A stretch of 64,000 nt of DNA, taken from a virus. Lineage: Duplodnaviria > Caudoviricetes. Each line of letters starts with the position of its first letter. Position 1 is the stretch's first letter. Shown in pieces: positions 715 to 53,494 of the stretch. The stretch is from positions 1 through 64,000 of IMG/VR virus record IMGVR_UViG_3300033475_000011, one strand, 5' to 3'. The position numbers and the translations under genes are program-made. Under the pieces are notes generated by a model that had not been told where the DNA came from, did no database searches, and saw only the letters and a list, made by a program, of their open reading frames with translations.

Positions 715-1028
715 AGGCTGATCCGCCGAGGCAAGACGTCATCGCGGGACTGATCGACAAGATCAGGGCGTACGACGACCTCACCGGCGACGACCTCGGC
801 CGGGCCGCGATCGCTCTGTCGATCACGGACGCGACTTCGAGCGTTGACGAGTTGGCGTCATGGATCGTGGTGCATCTCGTGCGCGCTGCCCGGGAGCCGG
901 ACTGGCGTCGCATCGCCATCCGCTGCTGGGAGTTGGATGGCCGCGAGGAGATCAGCCGGCAGCTGGAGCCGGGCCAGTTCGGTGCACTCATGGCGGCCGT
1001 GAAAGCCGAGCAGGGGCCACGAGCGTGA
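708..1028 (+). CDS. hypothetical protein
   Basis: Coupled to neighbours; GTGA overlap with the recombinase. Confidence 0.6.
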   Translation: MLKADPPRQDVIAGLIDKIRAYDDLTGDDLGRAAIALSITDATSSVDELASWIVVHLVRAAREPDWRRIAIRCWELDGREEISRQLEPGQFGALMAAVKAEQGPRA

Positions 1029-2311
1029 ACACCACCACTGTCCGCCGATGCGTGCTCTACGCCCGGATCAGCCTCAGCAAAGAAGAATCCGTCTCGGTCG
1101 AACGCCAGCTGACCTCTGCCCGCAAATACGCCGAGGGTCGCGGCTGGCAAGTGATCGGCGAGTTCATCGACGATGGCGTCTCCGCGACCGCCAACCGGCC
1201 CGAGGACCGCAAGGGTTGGACAGCGCTCCTGGCCGCAGACGGCTTCGACGCCGTCGTGATCTGGAAGGTGGATCGGCTCGCGCGGCGGGTGCTGGACTTC
1301 CTTCACGTCGATGACGTGTTGCAGCGACGCGGCGCAGGTCTCGTCGCGGTTGAGGACCCGATCGACATGACCACCCCGATGGGACGTGCCTTCGCAACCA
1401 TCCTGGCCGTGTTCGGCGAGATGGAGGCCGCCGCCATCGGTGCCCGCGTCCGGGCCGCCCGCGCTCACTTGCTCGCCGAGGGTCGCTTCGTCGGCGGCGG
1501 GATCCCCTACGGCTACCTCTCGGCACTGAACCCGGACGGGCCAGGTCGAGTGCTGGTCAAGGACCCGGAGCGTGTCGGCTGGCTTGCTGAGGCGATCGCG
1601 ATGGCCCTTCGGGGAGTCACGGTCAACGCGATCGCCAGCTGGCTGACTGCCCAGGCCGCACCGCTCCCGCGTGGCCGGACACGCAAGACCGGCAGCGTCG
1701 CATGGAGCAATCAGACGGTCAACCACCTGCTGCGCAACCCCATCCTGGCCGGGATGACGCCACGCAATCCGGGCCGGGGCAGGAACACCCGGGACGTCGA
1801 CCCGTTTGCGGTCGTCCGCGACGATAACGGTGACCCGGTCGTGAACGAGACGCTCGCCCTGATCAGCACCGAGGAGTTCACGGCGTTGCAGAACCTCCTC
1901 GACTCGCGTACCAGTCCGCAATCGGTGAAGCGACGCGATCGAGAAAAGACGAGCCCGCTCCTGTCGCGGGTCGCGCACTGTGACGACTGCAACGTATATA
2001 TGTGTCGCGGCACCAATCAAAAACGGCCCGTCCTCTACTGTCCGCGCTGTCGCCAGACACTCGCCCGCACCCCGTTCGATCCCTACCTCATCCGACGGTT
2101 GCTACGGGAACGCGGGCGCGAACCGTACGGCGCGGCGACTGTCCGGGAGTGCTGGAAAGCCCTCGGCACCAACGACGAGGCGCGCCGGGAGATCCTCCTC
2201 TCCCAACTGGACAGCCTCCGTATCCGCCGCGGCGTCGTCGGCCGCTACTTCGACAAGGACCGGGTGCTGCTCCGCTGGCGCACCGCCGAACCCTCTCAGG
2301 AGGCTGCATGA
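1025..2311 (+). CDS. large serine recombinase (resolvase + recombinase + Zn-ribbon domains)
   Basis: LYARIS catalytic Ser motif, DDGVSA, WKVDRLAR, Zn ribbon CDDC...CPRC; GTG start at 1025. Confidence 0.92.
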   Translation: MNTTTVRRCVLYARISLSKEESVSVERQLTSARKYAEGRGWQVIGEFIDDGVSATANRPEDRKGWTALLAADGFDAVVIWKVDRLARRVLDFLHVDDVLQRRGAGLVAVEDPIDMTTPMGRAFATILAVFGEMEAAAIGARVRAARAHLLAEGRFVGGGIPYGYLSALNPDGPGRVLVKDPERVGWLAEAIAMALRGVTVNAIASWLTAQAAPLPRGRTRKTGSVAWSNQTVNHLLRNPILAGMTPRNPGRGRNTRDVDPFAVVRDDNGDPVVNETLALISTEEFTALQNLLDSRTSPQSVKRRDREKTSPLLSRVAHCDDCNVYMCRGTNQKRPVLYCPRCRQTLARTPFDPYLIRRLLRERGREPYGAATVRECWKALGTNDEARREILLSQLDSLRIRRGVVGRYFDKDRVLLRWRTAEPSQEAA

Positions 2312-5069: not shown

Positions 5070-5819
5070 TCACGTTGCGATGTGGTGGATGACGGTGAGC
5101 GCCGTGTCCCACACGCCAGGGAGCAGCAACACCCCAAGCGCAGCGAACACGGGGAAGATGACGCGGGATTCGACGGCACCGCCGGTCCGGAACCGCATGA
5201 AGTAGGGCGGCCCGAGCTCCGCCCACGTCTCCCCGGCGATGGGGATCGGGAACAGGAACGGGCAGCCACTCAGGGTGAGCGCGTCGCCGAGGCAGTGCAC
5301 GACACAGCCCACTGTGACAGCGATCCACAGCCAAGGGGCGACACTGTCCAGCACTGTCCCGCCACTGGTGATCGCGATGGCCGCTGCCCCGCCGCCGGCT
5401 GCGAGTGCGATCCATCCCCCGAGGGCCGCGTGTGCGAGCAGTATCCCGAACGCCAACACGGCGAGTACCACCCACCGGCCCGCGAGGTGGGTTCCGAGGG
5501 CGGTGAGTCCGCCGGCGGCCAGTGCGAACACGACAGTGTGGGAGAGATGCCTGTGCTCGCCGGACCAGTCCTCATCTCGTGGCCCTTTCGTCACGGCATA
5601 CAGGGCGCGGGAAGCGCCCCGGAGAGCCCACGACATGGCCCCGGTGATGGGGCCGAGGATTCGGGATGCGGTGGCGCTACCACAGTCGAGATCGGGCAGG
5701 AGCGCGAAACCCGCTACTGTGGTGGCGAAGAGGATGCTGGGCAGCGTGGCCAGCCCGAGCGCGGGCGCGACCGCGAGGCCAGCGCACCAACCGGAGATCC
5801 CGTGCGTCCTGCCCATCAT
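5070..5819 (-). CDS. membrane metal-dependent hydrolase (YdjM/DUF457-like)
   Basis: MGRTH, LLPDLD, HRHLSHT, HCLGDALT; several TM helices. Confidence 0.85.
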   Translation of the reverse strand: MMGRTHGISGWCAGLAVAPALGLATLPSILFATTVAGFALLPDLDCGSATASRILGPITGAMSWALRGASRALYAVTKGPRDEDWSGEHRHLSHTVVFALAAGGLTALGTHLAGRWVVLAVLAFGILLAHAALGGWIALAAGGGAAAIAITSGGTVLDSVAPWLWIAVTVGCVVHCLGDALTLSGCPFLFPIPIAGETWAELGPPYFMRFRTGGAVESRVIFPVFAALGVLLLPGVWDTALTVIHHIAT

Positions 5820-8408: not shown

Positions 8409-8509
8409 GGTGGGTCCTCCTCGTGGGGAGTGGTGGTGTACGACCAGCATACGGTAGTGCACGCTAGTTCGTCTAGTCCCGTTCCCTGGCGAACCCAGCC
8501 CAAAAATCA

Positions 8510-8535
8510 GGGCCGCCCCTCGAAAGGGACGGCCC
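8510..8535 (-). terminator. intrinsic terminator
   Basis: GC stem around a 4-nt loop, followed by TGATTTTT on the minus strand. Confidence 0.6.
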
Positions 8536-8553
8536 CACCTCGATCAATACTGG

Positions 8554-8991
8554 CTAGCGGGCAGCCTGCGTTGCAGCCACCGCCTCCTCATTCGCCGCCA
8601 TCAACGCTCGCTGCACCTCACCCAACTGCCCCATCACCCGGTCCCGCTCACGGCGAGCAGACACCACACGCTCATCCTCCGGGCCGTACAGGCGATGCAG
8701 ATCCAGCACCACATCCCCCAACCGCAGCGCCTCGTCATGCAGGCGGGCCCGCCGACCCGACAGGTCTTCAGCGTCGGCGTACGCCAGCTCCCGCCGTTCC
8801 ACCGCCCGCATCGACAACTCCCGCAACGCGGCATGCTCGCGCCGCAACCGGCGGGAATACGCCTCGCACGCCGCCCGATGCGCCTCCACCTGCGTCACGT
8901 CCATGGCCAGCACATCCACTACCGCCAGGTACTGCTCCCACTGGTCGTGGGTGCAGGTGTGCGGGTCGGGTAGCTGCACCGTGTCTGCCAT
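8554..8991 (-). CDS. coiled-coil hypothetical protein downstream of traB
   Basis: Helical composition; follows the TraB stop. Confidence 0.55.
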   Translation of the reverse strand: MADTVQLPDPHTCTHDQWEQYLAVVDVLAMDVTQVEAHRAACEAYSRRLRREHAALRELSMRAVERRELAYADAEDLSGRRARLHDEALRLGDVVLDLHRLYGPEDERVVSARRERDRVMGQLGEVQRALMAANEEAVAATQAAR

Positions 8992-9025
8992 GCGGGCCAC
9001 GATACGCGCCACCCAACCGCGACAC

Positions 9026-11242
9026 CTACATCTTGCTGTTCTTCTCCACCGCCGCCCGCAGCTCAACCAGCCGGTAAGCTTCACGTTTCTGCCCGTTGAT
9101 CCTCGGCCTCGGCTCCGCCCTGTACACCGTCACCGCCGCCAGGGCTTTGGAGATGCGCCGCCCACCGGCTGTGGCGTTGGTGGGCCACCCGAGCGTGCCG
9201 GCCAACTCGAGCAGATCCGTGGTCGGCACATACGGGCCATCTCCATAGAGCAGGTCCGAAGCAGCGATCGCCTCGAGCAGGACCCGCGTGTCTTCAGGCA
9301 GGGTGGGGTCGATCCGGCGGACCGGCTGCACCGGTTCAACCGCTGGGTCTGCGGCGTAGAGCGCTTCGAGATTGTCGATCTCCGACTGTCGCGGATCCGT
9401 CTCGGGCGTCTCGTCGCGTCCAGTGACGCCCTCGCCGACTGTCGTCGCCGCCGGCTGACCCGGCACGGTGCGGACCGGGTTCCGGCACAGCAAGTGCAGA
9501 AAGTCCTGCTGGCCCTGCCGCGTCCACCGTTCCGGATAGTAGGTGAGCGATTCAGCGGTCCATTCGTCGATCGGGCCACAGTACTGGGCGTGCTCCACCG
9601 CAGTCTCCCGGATCCTGTCCTGAGTCAAATACAGGCCCTTCGCGAGGACCGGGCGGGAATACCCAGCAAACTCCATGTACAGGGCACCCACCGGGAGGGA
9701 CTCCACGTTGATCCCTGCGGTCTGTGAGTTGAACACGGCGTTCGCGTCGATCGTGCCTGCAGCTTGGAACCCAGCCCGGTAGCTGACCTGGGATTTCATG
9801 TCTCCGCCTTCGGCCCCGAGCATCGACACGGTGCCGCGCTGCGCCAGGAACACCACATGCAGTCCCTCCGATCGACCCAGCCGGATCAGCTTCAATAGCA
9901 GTTGTGCGAATGTGGCGGTCGGGCCCTTGTAGTTGTCCGGGTCTGGGCAGTCGTCAAGGGGGAACCGTTCAGTCGAGTCCAGTAGGTCCGGCGATTCATC
10001 AATGAAGATCACGATCTCGGGGTTTTCGGGGGTGGCATGCCACTTGTCGTCCCCGGTGATGGCTGCGGATTCCTGACGGCGCCGGACCACGGCGATGCTG
10101 TCCATCAGCATCATCCAGCCCTCGTATACGTCGGCCGCCCACCAGTCGATCACTGGTCGATCCGCTTTGCCTTGGAGGAACGGTTGCAGCCATGGCGCGA
10201 ACGCTCGAACAGGTTTCTCCCCGCAGATCATCCACGTCACACAGTCGGTGGATCGGGTGGTCTCATATGCGTGAGCGTTCAGGAAGGTGGTCTTCCCGCC
10301 TGTTGTGCGCCCGGCGACCATGCCATGGGGGTTCTCATGAACGTCCCACCCTAAATTGGTGCCGTCCACCGACACCGCAACCTCGATCGGGTCGTGGATC
10401 GACCGCGGCCCCGCGCGGTGGGGAAGTTCGATCGTTTTCGCCAGCACATCACTGGTGGGCACGATCAGTTCGGACTGGTGCGCGGCGACCGGGTTGGGTT
10501 TGACCTGGATGGACCCGGGACGGATCGGGTATGGGGTGGATCCAGAGGCGATCTTCTCGATCTCCGGGACACGGGCTGCGAGCCCAGCCACGTCAGGGGC
10601 TTTCTTGCCGTGGTTCAATGCCAGCGCGAACCCGTTCGGGAATTTCCGTTCCCCATTGACCCACCCGTCGTCGTTCAGGTCGGTGTTCACAGTGAGGTCG
10701 GGGCAGCCAGCGTCGGCGAGGATCTGTTCAAAGTCGTGCCGCTTTGTCTCGGCCCGTTTCGCGGCCCGCTCAGCCATCTCCTTCGCGTTGCGTTTGTCGG
10801 TCTTCCATCGGCACGCCGCGTACACCGGTCCCAGCAGGGCTGTGCCCGCGAGCAATGCGCCCATGGATCCCCATGACCAGGGGGTGTCGTAGGCGGCCCA
10901 CGTCACCCATGCCCCCGAGGCGGCGGCGGTGCCCATGGCGAACTCGGTGATCCTGCGGCGCCCGAACCGCTGATGTGCCCAGAAGCCGGCCCCGATCACC
11001 GCCGCGGCACTGGCCCCAGCCACGGTGGGCCATGGTAGGTGCGCCAGGTGCACCAAAGCACCAGTCGCGAGAGTGGCTTCGTCGGCATATCCGGTGTGGT
11101 CGAAGCTTTTGGGTGGGGCGCTCGAGTGCAGGAAATGCCGCCGCAACGAATGCGCCTTCGTCGGCCCCGGGGCCCGCGGCGTGCGGGGCTTGGCGGCCTC
11201 GGGGACCGGGGTGGGGGTGGGCTGCTGGGTGGGCGCCGACAT
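9026..11242 (-). CDS. traB: FtsK/SpoIIIE-family DNA translocase, actinomycete TraB-like
   Basis: N-terminal TM helices; Walker A AGRTTGGKTT; Walker B IVIFIDES; LIRLGRSEG..AQR; C-terminal wHTH-like tail (RINGQKREAY). Confidence 0.85.
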   Translation of the reverse strand: MSAPTQQPTPTPVPEAAKPRTPRAPGPTKAHSLRRHFLHSSAPPKSFDHTGYADEATLATGALVHLAHLPWPTVAGASAAAVIGAGFWAHQRFGRRRITEFAMGTAAASGAWVTWAAYDTPWSWGSMGALLAGTALLGPVYAACRWKTDKRNAKEMAERAAKRAETKRHDFEQILADAGCPDLTVNTDLNDDGWVNGERKFPNGFALALNHGKKAPDVAGLAARVPEIEKIASGSTPYPIRPGSIQVKPNPVAAHQSELIVPTSDVLAKTIELPHRAGPRSIHDPIEVAVSVDGTNLGWDVHENPHGMVAGRTTGGKTTFLNAHAYETTRSTDCVTWMICGEKPVRAFAPWLQPFLQGKADRPVIDWWAADVYEGWMMLMDSIAVVRRRQESAAITGDDKWHATPENPEIVIFIDESPDLLDSTERFPLDDCPDPDNYKGPTATFAQLLLKLIRLGRSEGLHVVFLAQRGTVSMLGAEGGDMKSQVSYRAGFQAAGTIDANAVFNSQTAGINVESLPVGALYMEFAGYSRPVLAKGLYLTQDRIRETAVEHAQYCGPIDEWTAESLTYYPERWTRQGQQDFLHLLCRNPVRTVPGQPAATTVGEGVTGRDETPETDPRQSEIDNLEALYAADPAVEPVQPVRRIDPTLPEDTRVLLEAIAASDLLYGDGPYVPTTDLLELAGTLGWPTNATAGGRRISKALAAVTVYRAEPRPRINGQKREAYRLVELRAAVEKNSKM

Positions 11243-11311
11243 GGGGTCTTACTCCTCGACAGAGAGGGCGGCGGTCGACGCGAGTCCGGTCGACCGCCGC
11301 CCGGGGGTTGG

Positions 11312-12751
11312 TCACTGCTGGTTGGACTGCCAGTCGTAGCCGCGCTCGTTCTTCCGGGAGTTGTCCAGACGCTCATGGTCCTGGGCGTTCCGGCGATGCT
11401 GGTCCGACTGGATCAGTGAAGCTTCCTGCCCAACCTGGTTGGCCTGCTTCGACAGCTGCATCAGCCGCTCATACACCGCCGTCTCGTCCGGCATAGCCTC
11501 CAACTGGGCGTTGGCGGCCTGCTTCAGCCCATCTGCCAGGGCGGTGAAAGACCCGGCGATGTCACCCAGGTTGGCGTGCATGCCCTTGAGGTTGCCGATG
11601 TCGTGGCCGGGCTTGGCCATGGCCGCGGCGACCTGCTCAGCGGCGGCGGTGATGCTGCCTCCCCGGCCGCTACCGATCCCACCGCCGCGGGTGGGCACGA
11701 ATGGGGCGTTCGGCTTGCGACGCTCAGGCATCAAATGCTTTCCCACTGGTTGTTCCTTCCGATCTCTCTGTGTCGGGGTATCACGCACCGGTTTGCGCGC
11801 GTCCCGTAGATCCCTCTGCAGTTGTTTCTCGTCGGCCCTGCGTTGTTTCGCCGCGGCTTTGCGATCGGCTTTGGGTACGCGCGGCTCAGTGAAGCGATCC
11901 TTTGTCAGGTTCCCTCGCCCCCAACCAGGGCCTTGTTTGCCGTGGAGTCCCCATTTGAGCGGGTTCAAACGGCTCAGCCGCCCCTGTTTCCTACTCGGCT
12001 TTTTCGAGTTTGGCTGCTTGCGGTCGTTCTTGCTGTTGGTGCGGTTCTTGTTGCGGTTCCCGAGAAGGCGCCCCAACCCGCCCCGGGAACCGGTGCTCGA
12101 CGATCCACGGCTCCGCCCGCCACCGAGTCCTCCCCCGGTCGACCGTCGGCCGCGGCGTCCGAGAGGCCCGGTGCTGGAACCCCGCGACCCCGGGATCCGC
12201 GAAGACCGCGCCTTCGAACCGGTGGTTCCCGGACCCGTGCTCCTGCGGCCAAGACCCGGTATCCGCGATCGGCTGCCAGGTGTGCGCCCCCGGGACAGTG
12301 GGTTGCGCGTCTTGGCAGGTGTGGTTCCGCGGCCTGGGATGCCGGCCCCCCGGGACGGGTTTGCCCTGGATCCGGCGAGTTTGCGCATGAGCCCACCACC
12401 GGCACGGCTACCGCCAGCAGGGCGGCGTGACCCGATGGAGCCGATCCCCCCGTTTCGTCGCCCTCCGCCACCGATGACGCCGTTGCGGCTTGTTCGGGCA
12501 CCGAGCAGCCCGCCACGACTGTTACCGCTGCCACCTCGGCGCGTACTGCCGCGGCGTCGTTTCAAGGCCGCCGAACCCATCGCGCTGGCAGCAGTGGCGC
12601 CCCCGATCGCAGCCGCTGCCCCCCATCCGTAGGTGCCGACCGCGAACAGGGCCGCGTTCCCGCCGATCCCGGCGAGGTGCCCGGCCATGGAGGCACCCAT
12701 GGTCGGCTTGCCACGCGGCGCGGCTCGGTCAGGGGTTGGTGTGGTGGTCAT
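11312..12751 (-). CDS. transfer-region protein: TM hairpin, R/G/S-rich disordered middle, helical C-terminus
   Basis: Directly upstream of traB with RBS; low complexity. Confidence 0.7.
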   Translation of the reverse strand: MTTTPTPDRAAPRGKPTMGASMAGHLAGIGGNAALFAVGTYGWGAAAAIGGATAASAMGSAALKRRRGSTRRGGSGNSRGGLLGARTSRNGVIGGGGRRNGGIGSIGSRRPAGGSRAGGGLMRKLAGSRANPSRGAGIPGRGTTPAKTRNPLSRGRTPGSRSRIPGLGRRSTGPGTTGSKARSSRIPGSRGSSTGPLGRRGRRSTGGGLGGGRSRGSSSTGSRGGLGRLLGNRNKNRTNSKNDRKQPNSKKPSRKQGRLSRLNPLKWGLHGKQGPGWGRGNLTKDRFTEPRVPKADRKAAAKQRRADEKQLQRDLRDARKPVRDTPTQRDRKEQPVGKHLMPERRKPNAPFVPTRGGGIGSGRGGSITAAAEQVAAAMAKPGHDIGNLKGMHANLGDIAGSFTALADGLKQAANAQLEAMPDETAVYERLMQLSKQANQVGQEASLIQSDQHRRNAQDHERLDNSRKNERGYDWQSNQQ

Positions 12752-12753
12752 GG

Positions 12754-13056
12754 CTACATGTACTGGGGCTGGCTGGCGCGGTTGTACTGGCTGGCCTGTG
12801 CCTGGGTCTGCTGGCGTGCCTTTTCCAGTTCGGGCCGGGCAGCCCGGTAGTGGGCGCCGAAAGCGGTGTCAGCGGAGATGCGGGCCCCAGTGATGGCGCC
12901 CAGGATCTCGTCAGCCGCGTCGCTGTCCAGGATGGTGTCATCGGCCAGGAGGTAGTCGCTGGCCTGGGCTGCGATGACAGCGAACTGTTCGGCGATGGCT
13001 TTCCACCACTGGGCGGCTTGTAGGGGTGTGATGGTGGCGGGGTCTGGGCTGGTCAC
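12754..13056 (-). CDS. 100-aa helical protein of the transfer region
   Basis: GGAGG RBS; amphipathic helices. Confidence 0.7.
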   Translation of the reverse strand: MTSPDPATITPLQAAQWWKAIAEQFAVIAAQASDYLLADDTILDSDAADEILGAITGARISADTAFGAHYRAARPELEKARQQTQAQASQYNRASQPQYM

Positions 13057-13096
13057 TGTTTCCTCCGGTTGTCGCTTTCTGTGATCGGCGTGGGTT

Positions 13097-13322
13097 GGGT
13101 GGTCATGATGGGCACGATGGCCGTGGGGATAGGTGTCGGAGCGTGTTTCCGCTGGTGATCAGCTTCGGGGACTGTTCGGCTGGTTTGGGTGGTCATCATG
13201 ACCAAACCGGCGATCTTGTCGTGTTTCCGCAGGTCAACAGTGGTGGTCATGATGGGCAGGCATCCTGACCAACTGCCCATGATGGGCACCCGGGTGGTCA
13301 GGTACGGATGGACATCATGACC
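13097..13322. repeat. cluster of GGTGGTCA(T)/CATGATGGGCA direct repeats
   Basis: Full or partial copies near 13097, 13187, 13242, 13278, 13292 and 13313; overlaps possible ORF 13053..13328 with PIMTT repeats. Confidence 0.7.
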
Positions 13323-13339
13323 AGTCACCGTCAGTCACC

Positions 13340-13525
13340 TCACGTCGTGACGTTCGCGGCGAACGACGCGCCCGCGGACACGATGGATTCGCCCCATCCG
13401 ATGACGGTGGTGACGAGGTCAGCGGCGGTGTGCCCTGCCCGCGAGGGGCTGGAGATGACCCACGCCACCAGACCGATGACGACGATCCAAAACACGATGC
13501 GGGAGAGCGGCCAGTTCGCGGTCAC
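13340..13525 (-). CDS. small membrane protein (Spd-like)
   Basis: One TM helix; GTGA overlap. Confidence 0.65.
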   Translation of the reverse strand: MTANWPLSRIVFWIVVIGLVAWVISSPSRAGHTAADLVTTVIGWGESIVSAGASFAANVTT

Positions 13526-14757
13526 GATGGATTCCCTTCGGGATTAGCGCATTCCCGCCAAGTGCGGGACACGGTGGTACGGGACGTGTTGAGGTCGCGT
13601 GCGATCGCCGCGAAATCAACCTGATCGGGATCTGTGGTTTCGCCCGCGTCCACCCGGCGCGCGTATTCGGCCCGGATCCGGTCGCGTGCGGTCTGTGTGC
13701 GCACTGCCCTCTTCAGGGCCGTGCCGCGGCGCTTGGAGCCCGTGCGCTGAGCCTTCCGTGCACGCTTCGCGACAGGCTTCGAGCCCGTATCTGGGGTGCG
13801 TGCGTTCGTGTCGTCGGGACGCGTGCGCGGCTCAGCGTTTCCGCTGGTCGCATCGTGCGCACGCGCCTTCTCAGACCAGCGCTGCAAGTCCTGTTCGAAC
13901 CCGTGCTCGTCATCGAGGTAGTGGAGGAAAGCAGCAACCTCGCTGTGCACGCTGCCGTCGTCACCTCGAACAGCGGTCAACACACCCCCGTGCGGGGCAT
14001 CGTCGGGGTTGTCGGGCGCACGCTCTTGTGGGCGGTCGGCAGCGGTGTCTTCAGGGGGTGTTCGCACGGTGTCGGCGGTACGTGCCGTGTAGCGCTTCTG
14101 CACCCGTGCACGTAGCGGTGCGGACGCGATGAACCACGCCGCCGAATACCGGATGCCGCGGTAGGTGCGCCACACCCAGATCGTGCGTGCCGCCGTCAAC
14201 GGATGCACCCCGTGGTCCAGCACCATCAGCCCGGCCGTGCGGAACACGCGCCCGATCGCAGACCAACGGATCTCCGTCTCTACCCTCGCCTCAGCGAGCG
14301 TGCGCCCTGTCTTGAGGTGGCGGACCCACAGCACGAACAGGTGCACGGTGTAGGGCAGCGCGACCGACAGGCCACCAGTGACGACACCGCCCATGAGGTC
14401 GCCGTTGAGCACGGTGGCGTGGACCCAGTTCACGACCGCGCTGATCGACGCGAACAGCCACATCGCCCGCACCCACGTCCCGGCAGGGCGGTTGAGGACG
14501 ATCAACACCACGGCCATGAGAGTGCACATCCACACGATTGACTCGGTGGCGATCGGCGTGAACGTCGCCAGGTCCAGCTTCCAGGGGAGCGGGGAGAGGT
14601 CGACGGTCTTGGTGACCATCTTCGCGCGGTAGAACCCGATCTGGGTACCAACCACGACGACAGCGATGACACCTGTGCCGGCGAGGACGAGTAGCGCGAC
14701 GGTGAGCGTGAGTAGCCCGACAGCGAGGCGGTGACCGAAGCTGGACGGCCGGTTCAT
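13522..14757 (-). CDS. DUF2637-like multi-TM plasmid spread protein with C-terminal HTH
   Basis: Four TM helices, ISAVVNWVH, C-terminal FAAIARDLNTSRTTVSR. Confidence 0.75.
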   Translation of the reverse strand: MNRPSSFGHRLAVGLLTLTVALLVLAGTGVIAVVVVGTQIGFYRAKMVTKTVDLSPLPWKLDLATFTPIATESIVWMCTLMAVVLIVLNRPAGTWVRAMWLFASISAVVNWVHATVLNGDLMGGVVTGGLSVALPYTVHLFVLWVRHLKTGRTLAEARVETEIRWSAIGRVFRTAGLMVLDHGVHPLTAARTIWVWRTYRGIRYSAAWFIASAPLRARVQKRYTARTADTVRTPPEDTAADRPQERAPDNPDDAPHGGVLTAVRGDDGSVHSEVAAFLHYLDDEHGFEQDLQRWSEKARAHDATSGNAEPRTRPDDTNARTPDTGSKPVAKRARKAQRTGSKRRGTALKRAVRTQTARDRIRAEYARRVDAGETTDPDQVDFAAIARDLNTSRTTVSRTWRECANPEGNPS

Positions 14758-14945
14758 GGCGCCGTGTCCTCCTCTGCCTTCTTCGGGGCCCATCGTTGGA
14801 CGGTGGTGCGGGGGATGCCTGTCTCTGCTGCGATGGCGTTGAGGGACATGTCCCGGTTACGGAGTTCCTGGATCAGGGTTGGTGCTGTGTCGCGTCCCGC
14901 CCCGAGGTGGCGGAGTCTGTCCAGTAGGTCTTCTGTGGACAGCAT
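14754..14945 (-). CDS. small HTH regulator heading the transfer operon
   Basis: MSLNAIAAETGIPRTTVQRW; ATGA overlap. Confidence 0.75.
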   Translation of the reverse strand: MLSTEDLLDRLRHLGAGRDTAPTLIQELRNRDMSLNAIAAETGIPRTTVQRWAPKKAEEDTAP

Positions 14946-15267
14946 GGTGTGGTCCTCTTCGGGGTTGGGTTGCATGTGGTGATGGTGCCACTACTGGCCC
15001 ATTTCGGGCCACCTCGAATAGGGCGTGAAAACCGACCCGTGCGGGTTGGTTTTAGGTACCTGATCAGCGGTTTTCTGCCGTAAAAATTGGTGTCAAATTC
15101 GTGCCCGTTCGGCCTAGAACCCCAAGCGGCACACCGGAAACCAGCCCGTCGACCATGTCTTGTCGCTACCGGGTGTTATCGTCGGGGCAATGGAAAGGCC
15201 CCGGGAGGCGGACCATCCAACCGCCTGCTACCGGGGCCAATCAAACCGCTAGATAGGAGCGGCTGGA

Positions 15268-15532: not shown

Positions 15533-15925
15533 GTGAGCCTGTTGGTTGGCGCACTCTTGGCGCACTTGGTAGGGGATTACCTGATTCAGAGCGACTGGAT
15601 GGCGAACGAGAAGACGAAGCGCTGGTGGCCTGCGATCGCACACGCGCTCACCTACGGATTGCCGTTCCTGCTTGTCACCCAGTCACCGTTGGCGTTGGCT
15701 GTCATCGTCGTCACGCATGCCGTGATTGACCACTACCGGTTGGCGCGGCATGTGGTGTGGGCGAAGAACTTCCTCGCTCCCCGCTCCTACTGGCATCCGT
15801 GGGAGGAGTGCAAGGCCACGGGCTATCACCAGGACCGCCCGGCGTGGATGGCTGTTTGGCTGATGATCATCGCTGACAACACCCTTCACATGCTGATCAA
15901 TGTGGCGGCGGTGGTGTGGCTGTGA
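15533..15925 (+). CDS. DUF3307-like membrane protein
   Basis: LLAHLVGDYLIQSDWMA...H..THAVIDH...DNTLH. Confidence 0.85.
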   Translation: MSLLVGALLAHLVGDYLIQSDWMANEKTKRWWPAIAHALTYGLPFLLVTQSPLALAVIVVTHAVIDHYRLARHVVWAKNFLAPRSYWHPWEECKATGYHQDRPAWMAVWLMIIADNTLHMLINVAAVVWL

Positions 15926-16811: not shown

Positions 16812-17678
16812 GTGCAACACGAATGCGGAGTGTCACATTGCGGTATCGGGACCCAAGACCGGATCTGCGGGGTCCATACCCGGGAGTTGACGGGGGCGTT
16901 GCGGGCGCTGTGTGTGGAGCACAGTGGGGGATCCTCCCTGCTTGAGGAGCTGGATATGGTGATCACTAGGCAGGCGAAGATCGTGGGCGCACCCATCGGC
17001 ATCGTGGTGCGTAGCGGTGAAACTCGCCTCCCCTACCACGACCCAGCTAGCGATCTCAGGATCGAGGTATACCGGGAGTTAGCGACCTGGGGTGTCGTGA
17101 TGCTCCGGGAAAACCCGCACCTTGACCGTGTGCAACGCACCCCCATAGCGACCGGAGAGTGGCTGGCCTACAAACCAGGCTTGCTCGCCAACCTGCCCGG
17201 GGTGGAGTCGCTGCACGCCAACCTCGTCCGCCTGCGGCGGGACATCGAACGCATGATTGACCGGCCGGCGACCACCGTCATGCTCGGCATCTGCTCCACG
17301 GTCCTGGAGGACGGCACAGGGTGCCCGAAGCACCTGTACGCGGTGTTGGATGACGAGAACCGTCCCCCGGCGTGGATCCGTTGCCCGCAGTGTGGAGCGG
17401 AGCATGAGGTGTTGGCGAGGCAACAGGCGTTGGTGGCTCAGGGACGTTTGACGGTCGGCACCGCCGCCGAAGTCTCCCGTGTACTGGGGAAGATCGGGAT
17501 CATCATCCCTGCTTCCACGATCCGGTCCTGGGCGCAGAAACGTATCTCCCGGGGCAAGGTGATCGAGCCCCGCATCAAGGCCGTGGAGGCGTCCGCTGAG
17601 TGGCATCCGCTGTACCGGATCGATGATGTGCTGGGGGCGTATTTGAAGGGCTTGGAGAAGAAGGGGAAGGCAGCATGA
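16812..17678 (+). CDS. Zn-binding/HTH actinophage protein (possible late-gene regulator)
   Basis: Cys clusters plus C-terminal HTH ASTIRSWAQK...YRIDDV. Confidence 0.7.
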   Translation: MQHECGVSHCGIGTQDRICGVHTRELTGALRALCVEHSGGSSLLEELDMVITRQAKIVGAPIGIVVRSGETRLPYHDPASDLRIEVYRELATWGVVMLRENPHLDRVQRTPIATGEWLAYKPGLLANLPGVESLHANLVRLRRDIERMIDRPATTVMLGICSTVLEDGTGCPKHLYAVLDDENRPPAWIRCPQCGAEHEVLARQQALVAQGRLTVGTAAEVSRVLGKIGIIIPASTIRSWAQKRISRGKVIEPRIKAVEASAEWHPLYRIDDVLGAYLKGLEKKGKAA

Positions 17679-27901: not shown

Positions 27902-29419
27902 GTGTTCTACCCTCACCCGTTCAACCTGAACACCTACTTGGCCCAGTTCGATCCCCGACTGCTCGCGGATCCTGAAGGCCGGCGCATCTCCACCAGACTC
28001 GACCCAGTCTTGTTCGGGCTGCTCTATGTCCCCCATCACCTTCGAGGCCCAGAGACAGGCGACTCCATCACCTTCTCCGAGTTCCACATCGAACTGGCTG
28101 AGTACGCCCGCGAGCTGGTGAAGCCAATCGGGCGTGTTCCGGCGGAACGGAGAGACGCCTTCATCGCTCCGCGTGGCGTCGGAAAGAGCACGTGGCTGTT
28201 TCTGATCGTGCCGTTGTGGCTCGCCGCGCACGGTCACCGGCAATTCATCGCGGCGTTTGCGAACGCGGCAACGCAGGCGCAAGACCACCTGATGACGTTC
28301 AAGCGCGAGCTGGACAACAACTCGCTGCTGCGCCAGGACTTCCCGGATTTGTGCACGGCCGCTCGACGACCGAAGGGCGCCGCAGTCGCGGACTCCCAAT
28401 CCATGTACGTGTCCGCAAGCAACTTCGTGTTCGCAGCCCGCGGCATCGACTCCGCCAACCTCGGCATGAAGATCGGGGAGCGCAGGCCATCCCACATCAT
28501 CCTCGACGACATCGAAGGCACCGAAGGCAACTACACGCCGACGATGAAGGAACACCGGCTCGCGACGCTGCTGTCCGGCATCCTGCCGTTGAACGTGTTC
28601 GCCTCCGTGACCATGGCCGGCACCGTCGCCATCCCGGGCGCGATCATCGACGACATCGCCGCGAAACAACGCGACGAGGAACACCCAGCTTGGGTGGAGG
28701 ACGAGAACTTCACGCCCCGCTACTACCCGGCGATCGTCACCAACCCGGACGGGACGGAGCGGTCCCTGTGGCCGCAGAAGTGGCCGCTGGAGTGGATGCA
28801 GTCACAGCGCCACTCGCGGCACTTCCAAAGCCAGTACATGAACAACCCGATGGCTGCGGATTCGGCGTTCTGGCGGGGCGAGGACTTCGTCTACCGCGAT
28901 GACATGCCCCTCACTGGCCAGCTGTTGTCGATCGACCCAGCAGTCACATCGAAAGAAAAGTCCGACTACACGGCGCTTGCGGTGATCGGGTTTTCCCGTC
29001 CCGCGATGGCGTGTGTAGTTCGGGACGCTTGGCAAGTTCGGCTTCCACCGGGTGAACCGTTGCGGCGCCGGGTGTTGGAGATCCTGGACGAGTACCCCGA
29101 GATTTTGGGGATCGTGGTCGAGGTCAACCAGGGCGGCGATCTGTGGAAGAACACGGTGTTGCATGACATGCCGTGCCCAGTGCAGACAGTGACCCAGTCT
29201 AGGCCGAAAGAAGAACGTGCCGGCTCGCTGTTGGCGAAGTACCAGCGCGGCCGGGTGTTCCACGCGAAGCGGATCCCCGCCCTTGAGGGTCAGATGATCC
29301 GGTTCCCGCTGGGCACCAACGATGACCTGATCGACGCCGTGGGAACTGGTGTCGACGTGTACTTGAAGACCGACAAGAAGCCTCGCCAGATTCGGCCTCA
29401 GACGGCCAGCTACATCTAG
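27902..29419 (+). CDS. terL: terminase large subunit
   Basis: Walker A APRGVGKST, Walker B IILDDIE, nuclease SIDPA...DYTA...DDLIDA. Confidence 0.93.
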   Translation: MFYPHPFNLNTYLAQFDPRLLADPEGRRISTRLDPVLFGLLYVPHHLRGPETGDSITFSEFHIELAEYARELVKPIGRVPAERRDAFIAPRGVGKSTWLFLIVPLWLAAHGHRQFIAAFANAATQAQDHLMTFKRELDNNSLLRQDFPDLCTAARRPKGAAVADSQSMYVSASNFVFAARGIDSANLGMKIGERRPSHIILDDIEGTEGNYTPTMKEHRLATLLSGILPLNVFASVTMAGTVAIPGAIIDDIAAKQRDEEHPAWVEDENFTPRYYPAIVTNPDGTERSLWPQKWPLEWMQSQRHSRHFQSQYMNNPMAADSAFWRGEDFVYRDDMPLTGQLLSIDPAVTSKEKSDYTALAVIGFSRPAMACVVRDAWQVRLPPGEPLRRRVLEILDEYPEILGIVVEVNQGGDLWKNTVLHDMPCPVQTVTQSRPKEERAGSLLAKYQRGRVFHAKRIPALEGQMIRFPLGTNDDLIDAVGTGVDVYLKTDKKPRQIRPQTASYI

Positions 29420-29435
29420 ACCCAGGGGGTGACCG

Positions 29436-31070
29436 GTGGCTGTCCTGATGGAGCCCGAACCCCAACAGACCGCGGACGAAGACCTTGCCACGGCGTTGAA
29501 GGAGATGCGGCAGTGCCGCCATGGCTATGACAAGGCGGAGGACTACTACTGCGCTGATGTGCCGGAGATTTTCGCGTCCGCTCGCATGCGGCGGGCGATG
29601 CGTCGGAGTGGGATCAACTACCAGTTGAACCTCGCCCGGATTGTGGTCGAGTCGGTGGTTGACCGCCTCGAGGTATCCGCCATCACCTCCGACGACGAGT
29701 CCGGCCCGAATGACCTGATCCAGCAGGTGATGGAGGCCAACAAGTTCAAGTTGCAGGGCACGAACACGTTGCGGAAGGCATGTGAGTTCGGGGACGCCTA
29801 TGTGATCGTGTGGCCGAAGGAGAACGCGACCGCGCCGTACCGGCCTGAGGACATCGCGATCTGGTACCAGGACCCCCGCACCGTCAGGGTGTTCTACTCC
29901 GACGACAATCCGCTTGAGGTGGAGTTCGCGGCGAAGAAGTGGGAAGAGAACAGCCGCACCCGCATCGACCTGTACTACGCGGACCGCATCGAGTCTTACG
30001 TCAGCAAGAAGAACACGAAGGGCAAGCAGGCCGCCGACTTCGAACCCACCACCGGCACCAACCGGGACGACTCGGATGCGGACGAGGACGACGACAACCC
30101 CGCCCACATCACCAAGCACGACTTCGGCCAGGTCCCCGTCTTCCACTTCAAGACCACCGCGGACCAGTACGGGACACCGGAACACAAGGACTTCTTCCCT
30201 GTGACGGACATCATCCACAAGCTCGCAATCTCCCACATGGCGGGTGTGGACTACCAGTCGTTCCCGCAACGCTACGCCCTGATGGACGCCGACAGCGACA
30301 CGTCCGAAGCGGCACGGCTCGACGAGGGCCTGTACTCGTTTGAGATGCAGCAGGGCGGCACCACCGAGGACTACGGCACTGAAGGACGGTCCCAGTTCAA
30401 AGCAGACCCCGGCAGTGTGTGGATGGCGCCCGGCATCAAGGGATTCGGCCAGTTCGATGCAGCGGACCCTGCGAACTTCACGGATCCGATGGAGTTCTAC
30501 GTCCGCATGGGCGCCACCATCACCAACACGCCCTTGCACTACTTCGACCCCACCGGCGATGCCCCTTCTGGGGAGTCGTTGCGGACGGCGGAGGCGCCGT
30601 TCATCAAGAAGGTCGAGAACCGCAAGTTGTCGTTCGGGGACACGTGGCGTGAGGTGTTCCAATTCGTGCTCCAACTCCTGGGCAACGACAAGGCCAAAGT
30701 TGTTGTGCACTGGAAGCCGTCGTCGTCGAGCGATGACGAGTACTCGTGGCAGGTCGCACAGTTGCAGCAAGCCTCCGGCGTGCCGGTGGAACAGACGCTG
30801 TTGGAGCGTGGATACACCGCGGTCCAGGTCGCGGAATGGGAGGAGAACGGCCAGCAGGGGCTACCGCAGCGGGTTTCGTTGCTGTTGCAGGTGTCCCAGG
30901 CCATGGCCAACTTCACCACCGCCACCGCTGGCGGGTTGATCGGCGCCGACCAGGTCAACGGACTTGTGTTGAAACTGCTGGGACAGGCGGTGGACGATGA
31001 CAGCACCAACCCAGACACAGGTGCCGGCGAGCCCACCGACAAGCCTCTCGCCACAGATCGAGCGGCATGA
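29436..31070 (+). CDS. portal protein (SPP1 gp6-like)
   Basis: Follows terL; NLARIVVESVVDRL, G..YG.PE, PSGESLR. Confidence 0.9.
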   Translation: MAVLMEPEPQQTADEDLATALKEMRQCRHGYDKAEDYYCADVPEIFASARMRRAMRRSGINYQLNLARIVVESVVDRLEVSAITSDDESGPNDLIQQVMEANKFKLQGTNTLRKACEFGDAYVIVWPKENATAPYRPEDIAIWYQDPRTVRVFYSDDNPLEVEFAAKKWEENSRTRIDLYYADRIESYVSKKNTKGKQAADFEPTTGTNRDDSDADEDDDNPAHITKHDFGQVPVFHFKTTADQYGTPEHKDFFPVTDIIHKLAISHMAGVDYQSFPQRYALMDADSDTSEAARLDEGLYSFEMQQGGTTEDYGTEGRSQFKADPGSVWMAPGIKGFGQFDAADPANFTDPMEFYVRMGATITNTPLHYFDPTGDAPSGESLRTAEAPFIKKVENRKLSFGDTWREVFQFVLQLLGNDKAKVVVHWKPSSSSDDEYSWQVAQLQQASGVPVEQTLLERGYTAVQVAEWEENGQQGLPQRVSLLLQVSQAMANFTTATAGGLIGADQVNGLVLKLLGQAVDDDSTNPDTGAGEPTDKPLATDRAA

Positions 31071-32064: not shown

Positions 32065-32143
32065 CACCACCACACCAAAGGGTCGACCGTGACGGTTGGC
32101 CCTTTCCTTATGCGCCCGTGACGGGCAAAGGAGACATGCCGCG

Positions 32144-32764
32144 ATGGCTGACGAGCAGGAAACCCCCACCGAAGAGGACGTGGACATCACCGTCGATGAC
32201 GTGGAAGACGACGCTGCCGAGTCCGAGACGGACACGTCGGCTGAGGACACCCCCGCAGACGAGTGGAAGCCCCCGACCAAGGACGAGTGGGAGAAGCTCC
32301 AGAAGGCGCAGAAGGCCGCGGACGCCAAGGTTAAGCAGTTGAACCAGGAGTCAACGAAGCGGCGGCTGCGCATCAAGGAACTGGAAACCCAGAACGAGGA
32401 CGACGCGGCGAAGGCCCAGCGCGAGGCGTTGGAGGCTGCGCAGGCGCGGTACAAGCCTGTGGTGGCGAAGTCCGCGTTGCTTGAGGCACAGGCCCGCACC
32501 GATCGGGTGGGCGCTTTGATCAAGCTCCTCAACATGGACGCCTTGGAGTTCGACGGCAACGACGAGGTTGTTGGCCTCGACGTTGAGATCGACCGCGTGA
32601 AGTCCGAGTATCCGGAGTTCTTCACCCAGCCCGAGCCTGAGAAGCCGGAACCGGCTCCTGCTCCGAAGCCCGCGCCGAAAGCGGCCGCGGCACCGAAGAA
32701 GCCCGCAAGGGAAGAACCGAAGAGCGCCGGCGCCCTGATTGCCGAGCAGTTGCTCGGAAAGTAA
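32144..32764 (+). CDS. capsid scaffolding protein
   Basis: Acidic N-terminus, coiled coil, P/A/K-rich tail. Confidence 0.85.
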   Translation: MADEQETPTEEDVDITVDDVEDDAAESETDTSAEDTPADEWKPPTKDEWEKLQKAQKAADAKVKQLNQESTKRRLRIKELETQNEDDAAKAQREALEAAQARYKPVVAKSALLEAQARTDRVGALIKLLNMDALEFDGNDEVVGLDVEIDRVKSEYPEFFTQPEPEKPEPAPAPKPAPKAAAAPKKPAREEPKSAGALIAEQLLGK

Positions 32765-33052: not shown

Positions 33053-34003
33053 ATGCCTGTCACTCAGAACAACTACAACCAGTGGATCCCGGTCGAATAC
33101 TCGCCGGATGTCATCCAGCGTGTCAAGCAGATGTCCGCGGTCATCGCGTATGGACAGAACGTGCCGATGTCCACTGAGTCGCGCTCCACCCCGCGGTCTG
33201 GTGGCGTCACCATGGGCGGTATCGCCAAGGGTGGCGACTACGGCCAGGACACCACCACGGCGAATGATGCGGTGTGGCTGTATGCGCAGAAGTACGGTGG
33301 CGCTGTGCCGATCGCCGAGGAAGACTTGAACGACAGCCTCGCTGACATCGTGAACGCGAAGACCAACGACGCGGCCACCTCGTTCGCGAAGCTGTTCGAC
33401 AACTCGTGCCTCGGGGTCACTGCGGCGAAGGCGGCCACGGGGTGGGCGTTCGACTCGCTGTACTACATCCTTTCGCAGTCTGACGCGTCCACCGGGTACA
33501 CCGCGAACGCGAACATCACCCAGACCGCCACGGGCGGCCCGACCCTCACCTACGCCAATACCCGCGCGCCTCTCGCGAAACTGGAGCAGGGCGACTACTT
33601 CGATCCGGGCGGCACCGTGGTGATCGCGCACCCCGCTTTCGCTGACGGTCTCCGTGGTGTGGTGGACAACCAGGGCCGGCCGATCTTCAACGAATCGACC
33701 AACGGTGTTGCTGGCGGTGGCCAGGGCACGACCCCGACCCTGTTCGGTCATCCGCTGCACTTCAGTCTGGGCGCGAAGACCGCCGCGACCCCGACGCCGA
33801 CCCCGACCGGTAACCCGCTCATGATCGTGTGCTCGGCGTCGTACCTGTACGTCGGGAACCGTGAGCCGCTGTCGGTGCAGGCCATCGATGGCAACACCGG
33901 CCTGGGCGCCTTGACAGACACAAGCTACCTCAAGTTCCGTGCCCGTAAGGCTTTCGCGCCTGGTCACGAGAACGCGTTTGCGATCCTGGAGTGGCGTCAG
34001 TAG
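33053..34003 (+). CDS. major capsid protein (HK97-fold)
   Basis: IPVEYS..VIQ, AQKYGG.VPI.EE.L.DS, FRARKAF. Confidence 0.9.
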   Translation: MPVTQNNYNQWIPVEYSPDVIQRVKQMSAVIAYGQNVPMSTESRSTPRSGGVTMGGIAKGGDYGQDTTTANDAVWLYAQKYGGAVPIAEEDLNDSLADIVNAKTNDAATSFAKLFDNSCLGVTAAKAATGWAFDSLYYILSQSDASTGYTANANITQTATGGPTLTYANTRAPLAKLEQGDYFDPGGTVVIAHPAFADGLRGVVDNQGRPIFNESTNGVAGGGQGTTPTLFGHPLHFSLGAKTAATPTPTPTGNPLMIVCSASYLYVGNREPLSVQAIDGNTGLGALTDTSYLKFRARKAFAPGHENAFAILEWRQ

Positions 34004-36797: not shown

Positions 36798-37114
36798 CCG
36801 GCAACCTGTGGGTGCTGGATCACCTCGATGACGTGCGTTCGGACTTCTCGGTGTTCCATCGGGTCGACGTGATCGAGGAGCTACCGGCACGCCGGTTCTT
36901 CACGTTGGCTCGCCGTCTCGCCCACTATCAGGGTGCGATGCGGAACATCGCCATCGTCGCGGTGCAGTCCACTGATCCGGAAGCCCCACCGCCGGCGCCT
37001 GTTTCGTCGCGTGAACCCGCCAACGATGACGCCATCGCCGCCAGTGTCGACCTGATGGCCATCCACCCCGTGTGGGGCTCGGTCGGCGCCTACGCCAAAG
37101 CACCCGCGGAATAG
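36776..37114 (+). CDS. frameshifted tail chaperone extension (gpGT)
   Basis: RSDFSVFHRV...LAHYQGAM. Confidence 0.75.
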   Translation, partial: PKILDAVAGNLWVLDHLDDVRSDFSVFHRVDVIEELPARRFFTLARRLAHYQGAMRNIAIVAVQSTDPEAPPPAPVSSREPANDDAIAASVDLMAIHPVWGSVGAYAKAPAE

Positions 37115-37131
37115 CCCTTTGGGAGGTCGTC

Positions 37132-48889: not shown

Positions 48890-49646
48890 GAAAGGGTGGC
48901 TAGCGCTCCTCATCGCCATACTCGCGTTGCTGGCATCCGGGTGGGCCGTGTGGGAACAGGTCTCCACCGCGCGGGCCCAGCACGCCGCCCAGCAGCAGGC
49001 TAAGGATGTGGCAGACCCTGTCGCGGCCCTGTGCGCCTCTGACCCGTCCATCTACGCGCAACTGTCCGCAGACAGCAAAGCGCGGTGGGACCGGGCATGC
49101 TCGAAGGCCGCTGAGGTGCAGAACGCGCCCGCGCCCCAGACTCCCGCCGCGGGCCCTTCTGATAGTCAGGTTGCTGCCGCTGTTGATGCGTGGCTTGCTG
49201 CCCACCCGCCTCCGGCTGGGCAGAACGCCACCCCCGCCATGGTCGCCACCGCCGTGGCCCAGTTCCTCGTGGCCAACCCGCCGGAACCTGGTCGGCCACC
49301 GACCGCAGCGGAGATCGCCACCGCAGCATCCACCTACATCACGGCGCACGCCGACGACTTTCAGGGCCCGGCGGGGAAGAACGCCACCGATACCCAGGTT
49401 CAGGCCGCTGTCTCCGCGTACTGCGGGCAGGACACCGGCCCGTGCCGCGGCCCAGTCGGAGACAAGGGCGACACCGGACCGCAAGGCGTGTCCATCGCCG
49501 ACGTGAACTTCGAACGCGACAACACCGGCACCTGCCAGGTCATCGTGACCCTGCACGACCCGGCGACCGGGAACGACTCGACCGTGACCCACCCGGCGGG
49601 CGACGCGGCCTGCCCAACCACCTCTTCCCAGTCCCCAACCCCCTGA
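48879..49646 (+). CDS. membrane-anchored protein with short collagen-like GxY stretch
   Basis: N-terminal TM; GPVGDKGDTGPQG; Cys pairs. Confidence 0.7.
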   Translation: MRSRKGWLALLIAILALLASGWAVWEQVSTARAQHAAQQQAKDVADPVAALCASDPSIYAQLSADSKARWDRACSKAAEVQNAPAPQTPAAGPSDSQVAAAVDAWLAAHPPPAGQNATPAMVATAVAQFLVANPPEPGRPPTAAEIATAASTYITAHADDFQGPAGKNATDTQVQAAVSAYCGQDTGPCRGPVGDKGDTGPQGVSIADVNFERDNTGTCQVIVTLHDPATGNDSTVTHPAGDAACPTTSSQSPTP

Positions 49647-49656
49647 GGAGTCATCG

Positions 49657-53433: not shown

Positions 53434-53494
53434 AACATAATCTGTATTATGATTGTGGTTGTAAAACAGAGTTTTGGATCTTGAGGAGATGGCG

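Follow-up and report, generated by a model that had tools for sequence, protein, structure and literature searches.

Why a tailed phage genome should carry an operon that resembles the conjugation genes of Streptomyces plasmids is the question raised by a 64,000-bp stretch of DNA (the window), which comprises bases 1–64000 of an 80,751-bp IMG/VR virus record (IMGVR_UViG_3300033475_000011) classed as linear and given a completeness of 88% by CheckV. The record is attributed to an uncultured temperate phage, putatively of soil actinobacteria. The operon occupies positions 8508–14975 on the minus strand and includes genes for an FtsK-type DNA translocase and for a membrane protein with four transmembrane (TM) segments and a C-terminal helix-turn-helix (HTH), as well as a repeat-bearing non-coding gap (Table 1). 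From sequence comparison and by analogy with plasmid systems, we lean towards reading this operon as a phage-resident module of the TraB/SpdB type for the translocation of double-stranded DNA.

An earlier reading of the same DNA from its letters alone (the sequence-only reading) had placed a leftward operon here, and the open reading frames (ORFs) were confirmed in those places as one unit, which runs from an ATG at 14975 to an intrinsic terminator at 8537–8508. All of the genes that it named are present, and its gene list was amended in two respects, an eighth gene (8554–8991) being added and a 91-aa ORF (13053–13328) dropped. This ORF is probably spurious, the position being a repeat-bearing non-coding site instead, because its coding statistics are poor and it overlaps the repeat-bearing gap at 13057–13339, whose GC content is 59% against 66% for the operon block. 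The genes for the HTH and four-TM proteins overlap by 4 nt, as do those for the four-TM and small TM proteins, and the remaining spacers measure 2–69 nt except for the one gap of 283 bp. The spd operons, too, are reported to be tightly packed and translationally coupled (PMC4447253). A scan for the sigma-70 consensus, which is uninformative for actinobacteria, found no promoter.

The 738-aa translocase contains a Walker A motif (GRTTGGKT, residues 311–318) and a Walker B motif (VIFIDE, residues 410–416), with G316, K317, D415, and E416 invariant among family homologues. It matched PHROG 31069 at an E value of 3e-23 and Pfam PF01580 (FtsK_SpoIIIE) at 23.3 bits, just below the 24-bit cut-off. 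The 13 nearest homologues are all metagenomic, and the Walker motifs and many other residues are conserved along the entire length of the protein. A profile search of 1.84 billion representatives returned 1769 relatives, mostly of 630–870 aa, which match from the N-terminal region through the motor; among 61 sampled members of this wider family, plasmid_TraB was matched by 48 (best 2.5e-19), EccCa by 30, and FtsK by 6. An AlphaFold2 model (mean predicted local distance difference test score (pLDDT) of 66) predicts N-terminal helices at residues 45–66, 71–93, and 96–119, a long helix at 124–177, a single alpha/beta motor, and a compact C-terminal helix/strand domain at 645–738 (pLDDT 80–92). 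The hydrophobicity of the N-terminal region is moderate and lies under a simple TM threshold. With this region ahead of the motor and with its size, the protein agrees with TraB translocases, which measure ~650–800 aa.

A maximum likelihood tree of 41 rows was constructed and rooted on the FtsK proteins of Escherichia coli and Listeria; fragments, EccC, and actinobacterial chromosomal FtsK were left out. A branch with 100% support in the SH-like approximate likelihood ratio test (SH-aLRT) sets apart all plasmid, phage-plasmid, and phage TraB-like proteins, and the window family forms a 95% clade within a 96% clade that includes the FtsK protein of the cultured Saccharomonospora phage PIS 136. 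Outside the tree, EccC was matched less often than TraB by the hidden Markov models and ranked below FtsK by fold. On the grounds of sequence, the translocase is TraB-like rather than chromosomal FtsK-like, and the grouping that the sequence-only reading had expected was recovered with respect to E. coli and Listeria FtsK in this tree without EccC. A form with two motors may also exist, in that a 51-kb provirus (G003, IMGVR_UViG_2867241304_000002; L155, 41838–44186) contains an open frame of 1412 aa in which the family profile finds two FtsK-like matches, an arrangement that would be more like EccC.

The best matches of the translocase in the plasmid collection were six circular Streptomyces plasmids of 86–99 kb. 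CP109520.1 (S. anulatus NBC_01417 'plasmid unnamed2') is annotated with a terminase, a major capsid protein, an HK97 gp10-like protein, a 1241-aa ORF of tape measure size, a tail protein, and an amidase lysin, and also with ParA, DnaB, SSB, ERF, RusA, three WhiB genes, and a PhlD-type (type III) polyketide synthase (PKS), the combination described for pZL12 and pSLE1 (PMC4487206). By its gene content it is plainly a phage-plasmid; a search with PF05065 found no capsid in the plasmids, though CP109520.1 is annotated with one. About 3 kb upstream of its terminase gene lie genes for proteins of 500 aa (DUF2637), 88 aa, 690 aa (basic, with two TM segments), 716 aa (FtsK-like), and 176 aa, in the same order as in the window, and the two translocases aligned over 514 columns that include the N-terminal membrane region (hhalign, 99.9%, E 1e-32). 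Phage-plasmids of this type differ from the window record in that they carry ParA, DnaB, WhiB, and type III PKS genes and are annotated as plasmids, and the CP109520.1 membrane protein passes the DUF2637 model, whereas the 411-aa protein of the window does not.

The same order recurs in pZL12 (phage ZL12, NC_013420), in which pZL12-73 (membrane protein, 398 aa) is followed by pZL12-72 (766 aa), pZL12-71 (FtsK/SpoIIIE-like, 725 aa), and pZL12-70 (167 aa). The order common to the window, CP109520.1, and pZL12 is therefore a membrane protein, in some cases a small protein, a large basic protein, the translocase, and a protein of 145–176 aa. As in the window record, tailed-phage virion genes and one TraB-like translocase are combined in one genome, and pZL12-71 aligned with the window family over 466 columns including the N-terminal membrane part (hhalign, 97.7%, E 2e-12), at an identity of only ~22%. 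The experimental precedent of a plasmid-phage with a transfer locus is pZL12 (Zhong et al. 2010, J Bacteriol 192:3747, through its citation in PMC3583192 and PMC4487206), which PMC4487206 describes as a plasmid prophage with ParAB. The sequence-only reading had named pZL12 as a precedent, and the synteny of the window operon with the pZL12 transfer region and with the Streptomyces phage-plasmids bears this out. The 190-bp gap between pZL12-73 and pZL12-72 (L183:3029–3218) seems to contain an unannotated gene for a small protein with the motif LDMDEVAAEL..ALQHIESL, which is also found at the same position in the 88-aa protein of CP109520.1 (OG582_40770).

Two further IMG/VR records, G001 (74.4 kb) and G002 (59.7 kb), were found with a profile of the TM–HTH protein. 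G001 has TerL (52–56% identical), portal, capsid, and tail genes and an integrase in common with the window record, and G002, a record rated 100% complete, carries direct terminal repeats and encodes a tape measure protein and an integrase. In both, the TM–HTH gene is preceded by a gene for an ATPase, of 751 aa in G001 (L152:7257–9512) and 653 aa in G002 (L153:7638–9599), to which the window family is distantly related, with profile–profile probabilities of 88% and 79%, respectively, that include the membrane region. The module lies between early and structural genes in the window record and in G001. The best match in the phage collection was PIS 136 (E 2e-20), whose FtsK gene (PIS_041) falls in the same supported clade of the tree and is encoded divergently beside a DUF2637 ORF (PIS_045). 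Because the pairing recurs in G001, G002, and PIS 136, the module looks like an old one of phage lineages rather than a phage–AICE fusion (AICE, actinomycete integrative and conjugative element), and 'phage–AICE hybrid', the term used in the sequence-only reading, is not the best description. Unlike pZL12, the window record and its relatives carry a conserved tyrosine integrase, and no match to PF13614 or PF02195 (ParA/ParB) was found in G001, G002, or the window record (G000, rated 88% complete); the lineage therefore looks integrative.

Short repeats beside the genes form a further part of the evidence. In the TraB family, a C-terminal winged-helix domain recognizes DNA through 8-bp TraB recognition sequences (TRS) in the clt locus (PMC3583192, PMC4447253), and clt loci include nine 9-bp repeats in pJV1, four copies of TGACACC in pWTY27, and an 8-bp TRS in pSVH1 (PMC3583192). 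The 283-bp gap of the window operon contains a 15-bp dyad, TGSYCATSATGRSCA, in four exact copies and one degenerate copy, together with four co-oriented TGACCACC words; all four occurrences of the dyad in the 80.7-kb record fall within 13100–13288. Further upstream in the operon, the gene for the four-TM protein holds 10 of the 36 genome-wide copies of the hexamer CGCACG, which has a mean of 0.58 and a standard deviation of 1.3 per 1.3-kb interval. Pure coding bias was rejected as the full explanation of this hexamer set, in that copies occur in all three frames (5/2/3) and Arg–Thr codons cover half of them. By analogy with clt, the dyad/TGACCACC cluster is tentatively the best candidate for a loading site in the window, with the CGCACG set as a second candidate.

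Arrays of this kind are also present in the spacers between the ATPase and TM–HTH genes of the two related phages. Eight of the 11 genome-wide copies of CCGTGACA in G001 lie in a 170-bp stretch of this spacer, and in that of G002 two inverted copies of GGGTGA[CAG]A flank five forward ones; the array words are almost restricted to these spacers in both genomes. The two arrays look like the clt loci of pJV1, pWTY27, and pSVH1. In PIS 136 (JX006077, L162:2400–4050, record ~39040–40690), more than 40 GGTTCC/GGAACC hexamers crowd into 1.3 kb of unannotated sequence and into PIS_045 in its 3' half, beside the FtsK gene, and could be either a cis site or a low-complexity coding repeat. Taken with the translocase, the window operon resembles the TraB–clt–SpdB2 systems of pSVH1, pIJ101, pJV1, pWTY27, and pSAM2 in its single FtsK-like motor with an N-terminal membrane part, its four-TM partner of Spd-like architecture, its short repeats as a candidate cis site, and its coupled genes (PMC4447253, PMC3583192). 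It is unlike them in its carrier, which is an 81-kb tailed phage and not a plasmid or AICE of 10–30 kb.

The fold of the translocase brings in a different role. Foldseek ranked FtsK motor domains first (E 4e-8), followed by the pCW3 conjugation coupling protein TcpA and then by EccC/EssC, and the nearness to FtsK would suit a phage copy of an FtsK/SffA-type septal pump, which would place phage or prophage DNA into spore compartments or disturb host septation and would not act in cell-to-cell transfer. A small TM protein near an FtsK-like pump recalls SmeA–SffA and counts in the same direction. Actinophage FtsK-like genes have been treated as possibly related to development, phage ftsK, parB, ssgA, and whiB being listed as likely manipulators of Streptomyces development (PMC10117723; bioRxiv 2024.02.16.580700). 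By sequence, the family nevertheless lies nearer to the TraB proteins of plasmids than to the FtsK proteins of chromosomes, the operon has its synteny with the transfer locus of a plasmid-phage, and genome-unique repeat clusters adjoining the genes suggest that a specific cis substrate resides on the phage genome, so that we consider a role confined to development or segregation unlikely.

An ATPase of this superfamily could also serve in exclusion or defense, a membrane HerA/FtsK-type ATPase and its partners expelling or blocking incoming foreign DNA from within a prophage. The sole PADLOC match of the translocase was to mad8, the ATPase in the MAD7–MAD8 module of MADS defense (37 bits, E 6e-10; PMC13662399), and all three phage ATPases, from the window, G001, and G002, matched mad8 at 33–37 bits. 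The window match spans only the generic P-loop region, and these matches probably reflect generic HerA/FtsK P-loop similarity. MADS is an eight-gene operon (mad1–mad8) with methyltransferase, kinase, and nuclease partners, and other MADS components, a methyltransferase partner, and a nuclease were not found in the window operon with PADLOC or Pfam, where the only other match was a trivial one of an HTH to mad1. The operon also does not adjoin the immunity region, which lies near the integrase at ~60 kb, and a defense function leaves the cis repeats on the phage's own DNA unexplained. A defense module is accordingly an improbable reading of the operon.

The reading as a translocation module is extended by the accessory proteins. 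The 411-aa protein has four N-terminal TM segments, a variable linker, and a C-terminal HTH, with the TM core and the HTH kept in 18 homologues, and its place in the gene order corresponds to that of the annotated DUF2637 gene in CP109520.1. In a protein atlas, 22 of the 30 clusters nearest to it are DUF2637, some with SpdB_N and an HTH. The 479-aa basic protein consists of a Gly/Ala-rich hydrophobic N-terminus, a long Arg/Gly/Ser-rich disordered middle, and a helical C-terminal domain, of which the C-terminus is conserved upstream of the translocase gene in a metagenome contig (L003). It resembles both pZL12-72 and the 690-aa basic two-TM protein of CP109520.1 in position and composition, with a weak C-terminal match to the latter (E 0.003). 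The 73-aa protein had weak HTH matches in PHROGs as well as in Pfam. Beyond its weak HTH and mad1 matches, no match in Pfam, PHROGs, NCBIfam, or PADLOC was found for the operon proteins other than the translocase and the four-TM protein; the 100-aa helical protein had no family match in these four libraries, and none was found for the 145-aa protein in PADLOC and other library scans.

Insertion of the block as an independent AICE-like element, through the large serine recombinase at 860–2311 or a lost integrase, would also account for transfer genes within a phage. This recombinase lies ~6 kb to the left of the operon end and is one of three in the record, the others being an Xer-like recombinase and the tyrosine integrase. 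AICEs are compact, att-bounded elements with their own Int/Xis, Rep (RepSA, RepAM, or prim-pol), Tra, and Spd, and this block is without such boundaries and genes and sits in an 81-kb phage. No direct or att repeats bracketing it were found, which answers a check that the sequence-only reading had proposed; AICE-type int, xis, rep, Nudix, and GntR (TraR/KorA) genes were not found in or beside the operon with Pfam, PHROGs, NCBIfam, and other library scans, as that reading had stated for Int, Xis, and Rep. Base composition is ordinary, with a GC content of 66.4% in the block compared with 64.4% and an unremarkable tetranucleotide usage, and the pairing recurs at a comparable place between early and structural genes in G001, G002, and the phage-plasmids. 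An inserted AICE is thus a very remote prospect.

The carrier itself was examined in the same way. Head, tail, and lysis modules, reported by the sequence-only reading, are present in the form of TerL, portal, scaffold, major head protein, tape measure protein, minor tail proteins, and lysin, and the GC content is ~65% along the whole record. In G001, the integrase and homologues of 56861–57915 lie at opposite contig ends, which when joined give the adjacency seen in the window record, and close homologues of the operon proteins are borne by contigs of 81,635, 81,394, and 81,083 bp (P0001, P0018, and P0021). Because of this end adjacency and the near-equal ~81-kb contigs, the whole record is taken as one phage genome and not as a chromosome with tandem elements. 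The same two observations suggest that the record may be essentially complete despite the CheckV value. Two scans of the genome contigs of 185,579 species genomes found no integrated copy, and when viral, genome, and metagenome collections were scanned with the translocase sequence by itself, only short or distant loci were obtained.

If the operon acts as a TraB/SpdB-type module, the 738-aa protein would form a membrane-anchored hexameric motor of the FtsK type, the C-terminal domain of which would recognize short repeats within the phage genome itself, for which the dyad/TGACCACC cluster in the operon (13057–13339) is the best candidate. The SpdB2-like four-TM/HTH protein, the small TM protein, and the membrane-anchored basic protein would make up the envelope-spanning part, and the motor would drive phage DNA, double-stranded and unprocessed, through a septal cross-wall or into an adjacent cell. 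The outcome would be a second route of spread for the phage or prophage genome, one that needs no capsid and could operate inside a mycelium, from cell to cell, or in both ways. What is observed directly is the homology, the domain architecture, the structure of the operon, its synteny, the recurrence in other phages, and the unique repeat clusters. By analogy with the plasmid systems, we infer the binding of DNA at the repeats, the formation of a complex, the direction and substrate of transfer, and the time at which the operon would be expressed; capsid-independent transfer is suggested by the pZL12 precedent.

Several observations weigh against this proposal. The best NCBIfam model for the translocase was plasmid_TraB (NF041214) at 24.3 bits, compared with an equivalog cut-off of 800, which places it far from curated TraB proteins, and EccC is absent from the tree. 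The TM core of the 411-aa protein matched DUF2637 (PF10935) at 18.7 bits (E 6e-5) in a six-frame search, below the 22.8-bit cut-off, and hhalign of this protein to single DUF2637 or pZL12-73 sequences found nothing; the Spd and DUF2637 labels of the sequence-only reading thus depend on the four-TM architecture, the atlas clusters, and a model match below its cut-off. No significant similarity of the accessory proteins to those of pZL12 and CP109520.1 was found apart from the weak C-terminal match of the basic protein, and since sequence similarity is undetectable, the likeness is one of position and architecture only. The repeat cluster of the window is not at the 3' end of the translocase gene, unlike those of G001, G002, and the plasmids, and the 15-bp dyads would equally suit an operator for either HTH protein. 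Lytic Streptomyces phages such as Coruscant carry FtsK-like genes within tRNA islands, and the 6.6 kb examined there shows no annotated DUF2637 gene; the motor family therefore need not always serve transfer. Mycelial growth of the host is an assumption.

The arrangement is not the first of its kind, the pZL12 precedent being published. Thoma et al. 2015 noted SpdB2 homologues in the actinophages phiC31 and VWB and suggested that they aid the spread of phage DNA (PMC4447253), and the idea has so far rested on this remark and on the one study of pZL12 from 2010. To these the present record adds an integrative example without ParAB matches from an uncultured lineage, the recurrence of the ATPase/TM–HTH pair in related phages and in cultured PIS 136, and specific candidates for cis sites in three phage genomes. 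Should the module work in the proposed way, a temperate phage could spread without capsids, receptors, or lysis, and views on the host range of actinomycete phages, on how plaques are contained in mycelia, on the spread of prophages, and on the evolution of phage-plasmids would change. A broader generalization, put forward tentatively and as possible rather than probable, is that a TraB motor, an SpdB-like channel, and a clt-type loading site of their own are routine equipment of integrative tailed actinophages and not just of plasmid-prophages such as pZL12, and that these phages move their genomes as naked double-stranded DNA from one hyphal compartment or cell to another; on this view, transmission without virions would be normal and ancient in the life cycle of whole actinophage lineages.

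Table 1. Features of the operon, of the candidate cis sites, and of the phage record. Positions are those of the window record unless a locus and genome are given.
Feature	Position	Strand	Remarks
73-aa HTH protein, candidate regulator	14754..14975	-	First gene; weak Pfam HTH matches at residues 35–62 (HTH_IclR 2e-4, HTH_28, HTH_23)
411-aa four-TM protein with C-terminal HTH	13522..14757	-	SpdB2/DUF2637-like by architecture
61-aa protein with one TM helix	13340..13525	-	Hydrophobic segment at residues 3–21; GC at third codon positions (GC3) 0.89; 4-nt upstream overlap
100-aa helical protein	12754..13056	-	ORF, GC3 0.82
479-aa basic disordered protein	11312..12751	-	Directly upstream of translocase gene
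738-aa TraB-like double-stranded DNA translocase	9026..11242	-	
145-aa helical protein	8554..8991	-	Last gene; metagenome contig L003 has a homologue (52% identity) right after its translocase gene
Intrinsic terminator	8508–8537	-	13-bp stem with 9 G–C pairs, 4-nt loop, T-run; right after last gene
Non-coding gap, candidate cis site (clt-like or operator)	13057..13339	-	283 bp, between genes for 61-aa TM and 100-aa proteins
Ten co-oriented CGCACG hexamers (CGTGCG on plus strand)	13598..14304	-	Within membrane-protein gene; possible second cis signal
Co-oriented 8-mer array, CCGTGACA/CCGTGAA	L152:9513–9751 = G001 49541–49779		ATPase/TM–HTH spacer
Co-oriented 8-mer array, GGGTGA[CAG]A	L153:9600–9845 = G002 58910–59155		ATPase/TM–HTH spacer
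Large serine recombinase	860–2311		Resolvase and Recombinase domains; ~6 kb of other genes between it and operon end
Large terminase (TerL)	27902–29419		Virion gene
Portal	29436–31070		Virion gene
Scaffold	32096–32764		Virion gene
Major head protein	33053–34003		Virion gene
Tape measure protein	37072–41352		Virion gene; 1426 aa
Lysin	50638–51588		Lysis gene; Rv2525c-type glycoside-hydrolase-like
Thg1-like gene coupled to Xer-like recombinase	53474–55341		
Tyrosine integrase	58719–59960		
Early/replication region	61–80.7 kb		DnaB, DnaC, helicase, methyltransferases

Some neighboring genes were noted in passing. At the far end of the leftward gene array, past the operon terminator, lies a gene for an inner-membrane protein of the YdjM family (5070–5819; Pfam, 8.7e-18). 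Directly across the divergent promoter region from the operon, a 130-aa membrane protein (15533–15925, phrog_6676) recurs at up to 88% identity in 62 IMG/VR contigs that are unrelated in other respects and do not share its neighbors, and it looks like a highly mobile, strongly conserved moron. No relatives of the gene at 16812–17678 were found when it was used as an anchor. Relatives in IMG/VR anchored on TerL are at most 48% identical, and most of them, at an identity of ~45%, lie on contigs of less than 16 kb. Among cultured phages, the 14.8-kb Streptomyces satellite phage Mulchroom gave the closest match to the portal, at 37% identity, and the satellite phage MiniFlayer was matched as well; together with the short contigs of the TerL relatives, these portal matches hint that the packaging module (27902–31070) was borrowed by satellites.

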